This document shows, piece after piece, positions 11,268 to 13,052 of a DNA stretch of 14,385 nt (position 1 is its first letter; each line of letters starts with the position of its first letter). Position numbers and translations under genes: made by a program. The stretch lies in the IMG/VR virus record IMGVR_UViG_2718217884_000002, positions 1 to 14,385 of that record; one strand, given 5' to 3'. Source of the stretch: a virus. Its lineage: Duplodnaviria > Heunggongvirae > Uroviricota > Caudoviricetes. A model generated the notes under the pieces. That model had not been told where the DNA came from, did not search any database, and saw only the letters and a list, made by a program, of their open reading frames with translations.

Positions 11268-12238
11268 TTATTCACCTTTTAACCATGCAAACCCTCCGCT
11301 GACTTCTGCAGTCTGTCCGGGTGATATCGTCAATGGAATTCCGTTTACTAAATTGAAGTAGCTCTTGTATCCAACAAAAAAAGCAGCGGGATACGTATCA
11401 CTGACGTTTAATCTTTCACCTAGTCCATTTTTAGTATCAAGCCAGGCAACTATCACATCATTACTTTTGTTTCTGGCTATCATGCTGTTAACATTTGGAT
11501 ATTTACCCTTAGGGCCACTATCATTTGGTCCGCTGGAGGTGTCTTTCCATTCTGGAGAGTCACCTGATTCATAACGAATCGAACTGTTGGCATACAGTTG
11601 GGAAAGTGCTGTTTGTAGTCCGTAGTAGGTGTGTATCCTCACCTTTTCAAGAGGAATCATTTTGATCTGCACATCTACACGTCCTTCATTAAAGGTCATT
11701 TTTACTTTCTGTTGAATAATCTCTCTACCTGAGCCATCTTTCTTTTTGGTATTAAACCCTTGGATGTTAGACGTGGTTTCGATCACTAAATCATTTGCAT
11801 CCCCCTTAAAGGTATCTTTGACGATCTTCCCATCAACCCATACCTGAAGAGAAATATGCCTGGCTGTAGGTGACCCGCTCTGGTCACGGTTAAAACCATG
11901 CCATCCACCTGTAAACGCAGCTATTGGATCATCCCCATTTTCATTATTTTCTGCGCTAACCATAATTGGGCCGATTATATCAGTGTCGAATACTTGAACT
12001 GTTGAAAGATTATTCATTTTTCCACTTTGATAGATAGCATCTTGTACTGAATAAATTTTGTATAATTTGGAAAAAGAAAAAAGTTTGTTAAGTCCAACAC
12101 GCGAAAGTTCAATTACTCTATCTTCATTTGGAGTGTATACATATTGAACTCTCACGATTTCGTCCGGCATGTTTACAGTAACATATTGTTTTTCCTTTAA
12201 ATCATCTGCATTAGCTATTTTAATATACACGCTGTAGG
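11268..12238 (-). pseudogene. Main (C-terminal) part of a secreted-protein gene of unknown function, separated from its start codon and most of its signal peptide by IS1 copy B
   Basis: 963-nt open frame whose only start is a GTG at 12230, 9 bp from the IS1 end. Joining the flanks across the 9-bp duplication restores one ORF beginning MKKILSVSFFLIAYSVYIKIANA|DDLKEK..., a typical Sec signal peptide with an A-x-A site. No family recognised. Confidence 0.6.
12230..12238. repeat. Left copy of 9-bp target-site duplication CGCTGTAGG flanking IS1 copy B
   Basis: Identical 9-mer at 12230..12238 and 13007..13015, abutting the IS1 termini. Confidence 0.85.
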
Positions 12239-12253
12239 GGTAATGACTCCAAC

Positions 12254-12757
12254 TTACTGATAGTGTTTTATGTTCAGATAATGTCCGATGACCTTGTCAT
12301 GCAGCTCCACCGATTTTGAGAACGACAGTGACTTCCGTCCCAGCCTTGCCAGATGTTGTCTCAGATTCAGATTATGTCGCTCAATGCGCTGAGTGTAACG
12401 CTTGCTGATAACGTGCAGCTTTTCCTTCAGGCGTGATTCATACAGCGGCCAGTCATCCGTCATCCATACCACGACCTCAAAGGCCGATAGCAGGCTCAGA
12501 AGACGCTCCAGTGTGGCCAGAGTGTGTTCACCGAAGACGTGCGCCACAACCGTCCTCCGTATCCTGTCATACGCGTAAAACAGCCAGCGCTGACGTGATT
12601 TAGCACCGACGTAGCCCCACTGTTCGTCCATTTCAGCGCAGACAATCACATCACTGCCCGGTTGTATGCGCGAGGTTACCGACTGCGGCCTGAGTTTTTT
12701 AAGTGACGTAAAACCGTGTTGAGGCCAACGCCCATAATGCGTGCACTGGCGCGACAT
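12254..12757 (-). CDS. insB: IS1 InsB (167 aa); produced with InsA as the InsAB' transposase by -1 frameshifting
   Basis: Intact 167-aa [67 protein letters not shown]...; overlaps insA in the -1 frame. Confidence 0.85.
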
Positions 12758-12951
12758 CCGACGCCATTCATGGCCATATCAATGATTTTCTGGTGCGTAC
12801 CGGGCTGAGAGGCGGTGTAAGTGAACTGTAGTTGCCATGTTTTACGGCAATGAGAGCAGAGATAGCGCTGATGTCCGGCAGTGCTTTTGCCGTTACGCAC
12901 CACGCCTTCAGTAGCGGAGCAGGAAGGACATCTGATGGAAATGGAAGCCAC
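12676..12951 (-). CDS. insA: IS1 InsA (91 aa)
   Basis: [43 protein letters not shown]...; about 96% identical in protein to the copy-A InsA. Confidence 0.9.
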
Positions 12952-13006
12952 GCAAGCACCTTAAAATCACCATCATACACTAAATCAGTAAGTTGGCAGC
13001 ATTACC

Positions 13007-13015
13007 CGCTGTAGG
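13007..13015. repeat. Right copy of 9-bp target-site duplication CGCTGTAGG flanking IS1 copy B
   Basis: Identical to 12230..12238. Confidence 0.85.
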
Positions 13016-13052
13016 CAATGAGAAAGAAGGAAACTGATAGTATTTTTTTCAT
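13007..13052 (-). pseudogene. Orphaned 5' end (ATG plus 12 codons, MKKILSVSFFLI...) of the IS1-split secreted-protein gene
   Basis: ATG 13052..13050 preceded by AGGTAAG; the frame continues precisely into 11268..12238 once IS1 and one copy of the duplication are removed. Confidence 0.55.

Follow-up and report, generated by a model that had tools for sequence, protein, structure and literature searches.

A prophage gene split by IS1 within its signal peptide belongs to an unnamed family with a predicted supersandwich fold and heads an O-antigen conversion module in enterics

We analyzed a stretch of 14,385 nucleotides of a tailed-phage record (IMG/VR IMGVR_UViG_2718217884_000002, positions 1 to 14,385), hereafter called the window, which is a degraded Sf6/P22-like prophage. 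On its minus strand, between positions 11268 and 13052, lies a gene that the insertion sequence IS1 has cut in two within the region coding for the signal peptide. Once restored, this gene encodes a protein of 335 amino acids (aa) whose mature part is predicted to be a single beta-supersandwich domain of the galactose-mutarotase-like type. The family of this protein is large, has no name, and is tied both to glycan loci and to phage tail fibers, and the intact counterparts of the gene systematically stand first in an O-antigen conversion module of enteric bacteria. We hold this structural description, comprising the gene, the insertion, the fold, the family, and the linkage, with high confidence, and we put the probability of a periplasmic function that is directed at glycans and tied to conversion at about 0.5. 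The original prediction, made from the letters of the window, had proposed an uncharacterized secreted protein with a possible periplasmic cargo function; that it is periplasmic and that it serves as cargo is also what we infer here. What the present analysis adds is the large unnamed family with its galactose-mutarotase-like fold, common to the distal domains of tail fibers and to glycan loci, as well as the linkage to O-antigen genes across three genera.

The element that splits the gene, IS1 copy B, is 768 bp long (12239-13006, minus strand), has the same orientation as the gene, carries terminal inverted repeats, and contains insA (12676-12951) and insB (12254-12757). It is bordered on both sides by the 9-bp direct repeat CCTACAGCG (minus-strand reading), at 13007-13015 and at 12230-12238. 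Read on the minus strand, the ATG at 13052 (13052..13050) is followed by AAAAAAATACTATCAGTTTCCTTCTTTCTCATTG CCTACAGCG, the left end of IS1 (GGTAATGCTGCCAACTTACTGAT…), the end of the element (…GGAGTCATTACC), and CCTACAGCG again. The 5' fragment (13016-13052) thus holds the first 12 codons (MKKILSVSFFLI), which together with the adjacent copy of the duplication encode residues 1 to 15 and are identical to the 5' end of the gene for WP_024222019.1, while the 3' fragment (11268-12238) encodes residues 13 to 335 and the stop, hence the remainder of the signal peptide together with the entire supersandwich domain. As had been predicted, excising IS1 and one of the two duplication copies joins 13052..13016 to 12238..11268 in frame, giving 1008 nucleotides (nt) that encode 335 aa plus a stop, with the N terminus MKKILSVSFFLIAYSVYIKIANADD. 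The reconstructed gene is identical at 1006 of 1008 nt to an uninterrupted annotated gene of E. coli (NZ_CP148385, WP_024222019.1), the two differences resulting in Y159D and a silent change in S225, and all 175 nt upstream of it (175/175) are identical to those of the intact locus. Since only 2 nt separate it from the intact E. coli gene, the in-frame join is genuine and not an artifact. The length of the element, its inverted repeats, insA and insB, the 9-bp duplication, and the intact sequence restored by excision all identify a simple insertion of IS1.

The insertion lies after codon 15, so that the start codon, with the n-region and the greater part of the h-region, is severed from the remainder of the gene. 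It also cuts the gene body off from the region between the integrase stop codon and the ATG (13053-13227, minus strand), where an AGG resembling a Shine-Dalgarno sequence lies 9 nt ahead of the ATG and where the promoter presumably resides; a promoter scan gave 11 promoter-like sites, against 14.4 expected from shuffled sequence, with no convincing promoter upstream of the gene. Because the start codon and the n-region are absent and the h-region is mostly gone, the protein cannot be exported from this copy and its function is lost here, in agreement with the inactivation initially proposed. A product started at an internal GTG or ATG would remain cytoplasmic. The truncated product of the IS1-split allele, D159 included, is listed in databases as a "hypothetical protein" of 320 aa (GTG start) or 300 aa (WP_149027185.1, which has D159, and APL41964.1, on an E. 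coli contig), and the truncated open reading frame (ORF) is also present in three metagenome contigs, which break near the IS1 junction, 70 to 246 bp upstream of the ORF. The window copy is therefore a pseudogene, yet it is annotated as an ordinary hypothetical protein. The Y159D change of this allele (entered under window position 12578) contrasts with Y in all close intact alleles and in the family consensus and may reflect a loosening of constraint once the gene had been inactivated.

Two further E. coli alleles of the same gene, P0010 (291 aa) and P0026 (188 aa), share a C-terminal tail of 26 residues that is the translated terminus of IS1, 24 of the 26 residues being identical to the IS1 of the window read in frame. 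As the tail corresponds to the IS1 terminus, IS1 inserted independently after approximately codon 265 and approximately codon 162 in other strains. These repeated hits could be due to a preference of IS1 for AT-rich targets or to selection against the gene.

At the N terminus of the reconstructed protein, MKK is followed by a 15-residue hydrophobic stretch (ILSVSFFLIAYSVYI) and then, by inspection, by KIANA, with a probable cleavage site directly before DD. Residues 1 to 25 lie outside the predicted fold, with a predicted local distance difference test (pLDDT) score below 50 in the AlphaFold model, and in the alignment an AXA-like site occupies the corresponding position in the orthologs of Salmonella and Citrobacter. 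A charged n-region, an h-region, the AXA site, and the lack of a lipobox cysteine are the sequence features of a Sec-dependent signal peptidase I substrate, and the Sec signal peptide initially proposed, ending at ANA before DD, was thus borne out. We also considered a conserved lipoprotein and rejected it: the Salmonella variant has a lipobox-like IIAC, but in E. coli the corresponding position is occupied by Y, and the AXA site that follows is common to all variants. The intact protein is accordingly predicted, from its N-terminal sequence, to be exported to the periplasm.

Intact orthologs of 335 to 339 aa, 74 to 99% identical, were found in E. coli, Salmonella enterica, and Citrobacter, and the joined sequence indeed occurs uninterrupted in many genomes. 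In every enterobacterial context examined, the counts resting on a limited number of loci, the gene immediately precedes either an acyltransferase-3 (AT3) gene or gtrABC, on the same strand, with a tailspike gene convergent to them. This linkage was seen in prophages at four chromosomal positions, on at least three types of backbone and in three genera. The order is tRNA-Arg, intS, gene, AT3, tailspike in one context, matching the expectation of intact homologs beside acyltransferase and integrase genes, and tRNA-Arg, intS, gene, gtrA-gtrB-gtrC, tailspike, with no AT3, in another. The same AT3 module is found within a P22-like prophage near a dacD-like gene; a lysis cassette, the gene, AT3, and an 895-aa tailspike follow each other in enteropathogenic E. 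coli E2348/69 and in Salmonella; and in Citrobacter the order is thrS, gene, gtrABC, and a 784-aa tailspike. Among isolated phages, in contrast to these prophages, a tblastn search of 50,697 phage records with the protein gave no match, Sf6 and Sf101 lack the gene as well, and the matches of the long family member P0029 among these records were confined to its N-terminal fiber module, outside the supersandwich domain.

Pairwise ratios of nonsynonymous to synonymous substitution rates (dN/dS) among the orthologs were 0.11 to 0.26 overall, at dS values up to about 0.8, with 0.09 for the core, 0.09 to 0.20 for the mature part, and 0.84 for the signal peptide. Owing to the low overall dN/dS, these comparisons indicate that the gene is functional and under purifying selection. 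It is also mosaic, the N-terminal third and the C-terminal quarter being variable and the core 88 to 100% identical. One allele (locus L056) resembles the L001 type over its first ~250 residues (96 to 100% per window of 25 residues), and in its last ~85 residues it diverges from L001 by the same per-window values as does the L004 type (72, 80, 84, and 50%). Compared in this way, through L001 and not directly between L056 and L004, L056 seems to carry an L004-type C-terminal segment, which would point to recombination within the gene.

By location and orientation, the gene belongs to an O-antigen (serotype) conversion module, of which it is systematically the first gene in enterics. In the window it stands, as the original prediction had it, between the integrase gene (IntS type, 13228-14385) and the acetyltransferase gene (Acyl_transf_3, 9713-10786), in a locus that resembles the conversion modules of P22, Sf6, and CPS-53 in place and orientation (next to intS and tRNA-Arg, upstream of AT3 or gtrABC, with the tailspike convergent). 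The 481-bp spacer between the split gene and AT3 (10787-11267, minus strand) has the same length in intact loci. The AT richness noted at the outset was confirmed as well: the GC content is 38.4% for the split gene, 30.5% for AT3, 39.7% for the tailspike gene, and 47.3% for the integrase gene, in line with other conversion cargo. Conversion of the O antigen by temperate phages is the classic case of lysogenic conversion and diversifies the serotypes of Shigella, Salmonella, and E. coli. The known conversion modules encode membrane proteins only (GtrA, GtrB, GtrC, and Oac), and to our knowledge no soluble exported supersandwich protein has been described in any of them.

The mature part, of about 310 residues, fell into no named family, as had been anticipated. 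Pfam gave only a subthreshold match to DUF2712 (17.6 bits), with no SGNH and no Aldose_epim match; NCBIfam returned only noise; PHROGs had no match for the protein; PADLOC produced only noise (E ~0.01), which places the protein in no known anti-phage defense system; and PDB sequences were matched neither by phmmer nor by the family profile, even at an E value of ≤10. Ten diverse family members likewise had no Pfam domain over the supersandwich region, and no match to a well-characterized family was found. In contrast to these searches, a profile built from 23 homologs recovered at least 1371 clusters (representatives at 50% identity) at an E value of ≤1e-3, 846 of them at ≤1e-30. The reconstructed protein matches this profile over about 300 residues and contains the family motifs D-x3-P, FTGGWH, YYGLQ, and K-x-YF; it departs from the family consensus only at Q189 and S169.

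About half of the top matches to the profile are stand-alone proteins of 300 to 400 aa, 50 of 75 with a hydrophobic N terminus, whereas the other half are proteins of 470 to 1285 aa with the domain at the C terminus, of which only 5 of 76 have a hydrophobic N terminus. The long members match the PHROGs categories tail fiber, tail collar, minor tail, and virion structural as well as Pfam BppU_N, Phage_fiber_rpt, and Phage_tail_fib, and their loci are phage structural modules: one is an SPbeta-like module, one lies beside connector and terminase genes, and one is on a 147-kb viral contig. Stand-alone members were found in a Wzx/Wzy polysaccharide synthesis cluster of a Vallitaleaceae genome, in a GT4/DegT cluster of Prevotella, and in Prolixibacteraceae clusters with DUF4855, DUF4434, GH89, and GH20, and two members are fused to DUF4855 and, in addition, to F5/8-type-C or CarboxypepD_reg domains. 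A cluster that recurs in Prolixibacteraceae and related bacteria (loci L017-L047; for example, L024, 1256-10770) consists of DUF4855, a GFO/IDH/MocA oxidoreductase, a DUF4855-like protein, DUF4434, the supersandwich member, GH89, and GH20; DUF4855 and DUF4434 are the commonest neighbors, with 13 and 10 occurrences, respectively, among the 129 neighbor proteins scanned. This cluster looks like an uncharacterized N-acetylhexosamine (HexNAc)-glycan utilization system. We searched the literature for the protein, for DUF4855 and DUF4434, and for mutarotase-like tail fibers and found nothing relevant.

Structure prediction, which had been suggested as a check, gave a confident all-beta AlphaFold2 model for the intact protein P0001, which is 99% identical to the reconstructed one (mean pLDDT, 89.7; predicted template modeling score, 0.86), and it is on this model that the assignment of the mature part to a single galactose-mutarotase-like beta-supersandwich domain is based. 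In the viral structure library BFVD, the best matches were a 1189-aa protein of Pseudomonas phage Zuri (E value, 4e-23) and a related 1182-aa protein, with a TMq of 0.76, followed by tail-fiber and distal-tail proteins.

Conservation was measured over a diverse set of 159 members, taken from phages as well as from cellular contexts. G123 and G124 are conserved in 100%, P103, H126, and Y306 in 99%, D99 and K304 in 98%, T137 in 98% (with S in the rest), Q221 in 97%, N175 and Y218 in 94%, N169 in 91%, and E189 in 90% of them, and the same set of residues is conserved in the tail-fiber subset. A polar set that hardly varies among phages and bacteria from separate phyla resembles a catalytic site, or one that accommodates a common chemical group, more than it does a receptor-binding surface specific to a host.

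The galactose-mutarotase-like superfamily comprises aldose 1-epimerases, OpgG/OpgD, domain 5 of beta-galactosidase, the P1 domain of YidC, and the supersandwich domains of PL8 and PL26 lyases. Within it, the conserved set D99, H126, T137, N175, E/Q189, Q221, K304, and Y306 is the unnamed family's own. An aldose 1-epimerase (PF01263) was considered, as KSYFNL recalls HSYFNL, and was discarded: the order of the motifs differs, and hhalign gave a probability of 0.2% against E. coli GalM. An SGNH-type partner of AT3 was also dismissed, as there is no Pfam SGNH match and the predicted fold is the supersandwich. At the level of the fold, the nearest precedent is the GH174 endo-alpha-1,3-L-fucanases (Fun174A and Fun174Sb; PDB 8jd7 and 9k1g). 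CAZy families are defined by sequence, and by sequence similarity the protein lies outside GH174, whose members, moreover, are marine fucoidan degraders and not prophage or tail-fiber proteins. A table in a review lists residues D119, E120, and E218 of Fun174A (PMC11943901). In the present protein, D99 and either E189 (Q in the enterobacterial clade) or E210 are candidate counterparts.

The distal domains of phage tail fibers and baseplates, in contrast, are true homologs, of which the domain forms the C-terminal module. The protein of the window differs from them in having a signal peptide in place of the fiber shaft and the part that attaches to the virion, and since it does so, it is built for export by the lysogen and not for assembly into virions.

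The function that we propose would start from this difference. The enterobacterial prophage version of the domain would have lost the fiber part, gained a signal peptide, and been retained as the head of an O-antigen conversion module. In the periplasm, the protein would bind, and probably cleave or otherwise process, an envelope glycan, the likeliest target being the O antigen during its assembly on undecaprenyl diphosphate (undecaprenyl-PP), which takes place on the outer side of the inner membrane. Together with the AT3 acetyltransferase or with GtrABC, it would then help to change the receptor used by tailspike phages. Within a glycan-directed function, to which we give about even odds, the chance that the protein is a true enzyme (glycanase, lyase, or esterase) would be roughly one third to two fifths. 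The most specific version of the proposal, namely, a tail-fiber distal domain turned into a Sec-exported periplasmic enzyme that acts on nascent O antigen, forming a third, soluble class of conversion or superinfection exclusion factors beside Gtr and AT3 and founding a new supersandwich family of carbohydrate-active proteins, is doubtful at present.

Several observations weigh against the proposed function. The candidate site, consisting of D99, H126, T/S137, N175, Q221, K304, and Y306 (94 to 99%) together with E189 (90%), is a candidate by sequence conservation, and the enterobacterial clade itself has Q at position 189, where 90% of the family have E, and S at position 169, where 91% have N. 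The likeness to GH174 is confined to the fold, with 6 to 9% identity and Foldseek TM-scores of ≤0.45, and none of the annotated relatives displays an activity. With the window copy included, the gene has been knocked out by IS1 at least three times independently, indicating that it is dispensable, and it is rare, being present in only 9 of 5426 complete E. coli genomes. Its association with O-antigen genes might merely reflect a common site for the insertion of "morons" at the end of the prophage, and, as it accompanies gtrABC as well as AT3, it is not bound to one chemistry.

The Q189 and S169 of the enterobacterial clade may indicate binding rather than cleavage. The protein could then be a noncatalytic glycan binder, that is, a secreted receptor-binding head that masks or sequesters the receptor glycan or hinders polymerization or ligation of the O antigen, leading to superinfection exclusion. 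We regard this as unlikely, as the D, H, T/S, N, Q, K, and Y set is almost invariant across phyla, whereas receptor-binding heads normally diversify with the host, and as members of the family occur in catabolic clusters beside GH89 and GH20. Furthermore, Q189 is shared by the nearest phage relatives, P0027 and P0028, of the same subclade and thus need not mean a loss of function. An obligatory partnership with AT3 appears to us less likely still. The protein would in this case relay the acetyl group to the O antigen, like the SGNH domain of OafA or OatA, or act as an O-acetyl esterase. Indeed, AT3 always has the gene directly upstream, in all 5 of the 5426 complete E. coli genomes that carry it (5/5), in 8 of the 8 places listed, and in loci L004, L010, and L056; it has no SGNH domain of its own; a scan found no terminator-like site in the 481-bp spacer between the two genes; and the nearly invariant D99, H126, and T/S137 could make up a triad-like set. 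However, the predicted fold is a mutarotase-like supersandwich and not SGNH, and a gene 98 to 99% identical lies upstream of gtrABC without AT3, as do the Citrobacter variants. The differences in GC content (38.4 versus 30.5%) and in identity across contexts (74 to 99% for the gene versus 95 to 99.7% for the AT3 proteins) also point to separate histories, and Sf6 Oac and other AT3-only enzymes that acetylate the O antigen are generally regarded as working without a partner.

The remaining two explanations separate the gene from conversion altogether. Relatives in glycan-catabolic clusters of Bacteroidota, the 175 bp of upstream sequence that the gene has to itself, and a GC content that departs from that of its neighbors would all suit an unrelated cargo that happens to use a common moron slot, for instance, a secreted factor that degrades or binds glycans of host mucus, dietary glycans, or polysaccharides of competitors. 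In Gram-negative cells, however, a plain Sec signal peptide takes a protein no farther than the periplasm, and a constant place upstream of O-antigen genes, at four positions, on at least three backbones and in three genera, exceeds what a shared slot would be expected to give, making this explanation rather improbable. As for the possibility that the ORF arose by chance or is what decay has left of a tail-fiber gene, the annotation as just a hypothetical protein and the repeated IS1 hits are what such a sequence might show, but the reading is effectively refuted by the selection described above (dN/dS of 0.11 to 0.26 over dS up to ~0.8), by the length of 335 to 339 aa kept across three genera, by the confident fold prediction, and by the more than 1300 homologous clusters.

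The neighbors of the split gene in the window complete the module. The integrase gene directly upstream (13228-14385, minus strand) encodes a 385-aa tyrosine integrase of the IntS type, corresponding to the intS found beside tRNA-Arg in intact loci. Downstream, the AT3 gene (9713-10786, minus strand) encodes an AT3-only acyltransferase of 357 aa, a putative O-antigen O-acetyltransferase (Pfam Acyl_transf_3, E value of 5e-35) that is 99.7% identical to the protein of locus L001. Its best match among isolated phages reaches only 34% identity, 148 blocks of the assembly collection contain the exact 357-aa protein, and proteins 95 to 99.7% identical to one another occur across P22-like and lysis cassette-type prophages of E. 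coli and Salmonella (L004, L010, L056, and L065-L072). A strong terminator-like hairpin with a T-run (9687-9706, minus strand) separates AT3 from the convergent gene of a P22-type tailspike (7266-9683, plus strand), which has the head-binding domain and Tail_spike_N and for which intact loci have a 789-aa ortholog. The receptor-binding part of this tailspike (7701-9680, the C-terminal 660 residues) has its best relative among the 50,697 phage records in Vibrio phages, at 29% identity. The tailspike was therefore dropped as a clue to the serotype: with relatives of this part at ≤29% identity in isolated phages, it carries no information.

Further to the left, phage matches jump at about position 3425 from genes of the early left region (1-3425; ead/Ea22, abc2, and erf, HK633- and Sf101-like) straight to genes for DNA ejection proteins (3424-6544). 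Because of this switch, the prophage appears to be a remnant without replication, lysis, and head genes. The early region also contains a second IS1, copy A (357-1110, 754 bp), with its own 9-bp duplication (GCCTTCGCG, at 348-356 and 1111-1119). Given the 69 mismatches and 14 gap columns that separate it from copy B, copy A is a divergent, possibly defective isoform rather than a recent sister copy.

If the proposed function is correct, the gene would represent an overlooked component of O-antigen conversion modules, one that is soluble rather than membrane bound. Serotyping, the design of vaccine antigens, and the host range of phages used in therapy all hinge on modifiers of the O antigen. 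The protein family is uncharacterized and deserves a name; it comprises over 1300 clusters, lacks a Pfam model, and has a nearly invariant polar set, which makes it a good candidate for a new family of carbohydrate-active proteins and for a new class of receptor-binding or depolymerase heads in phages.

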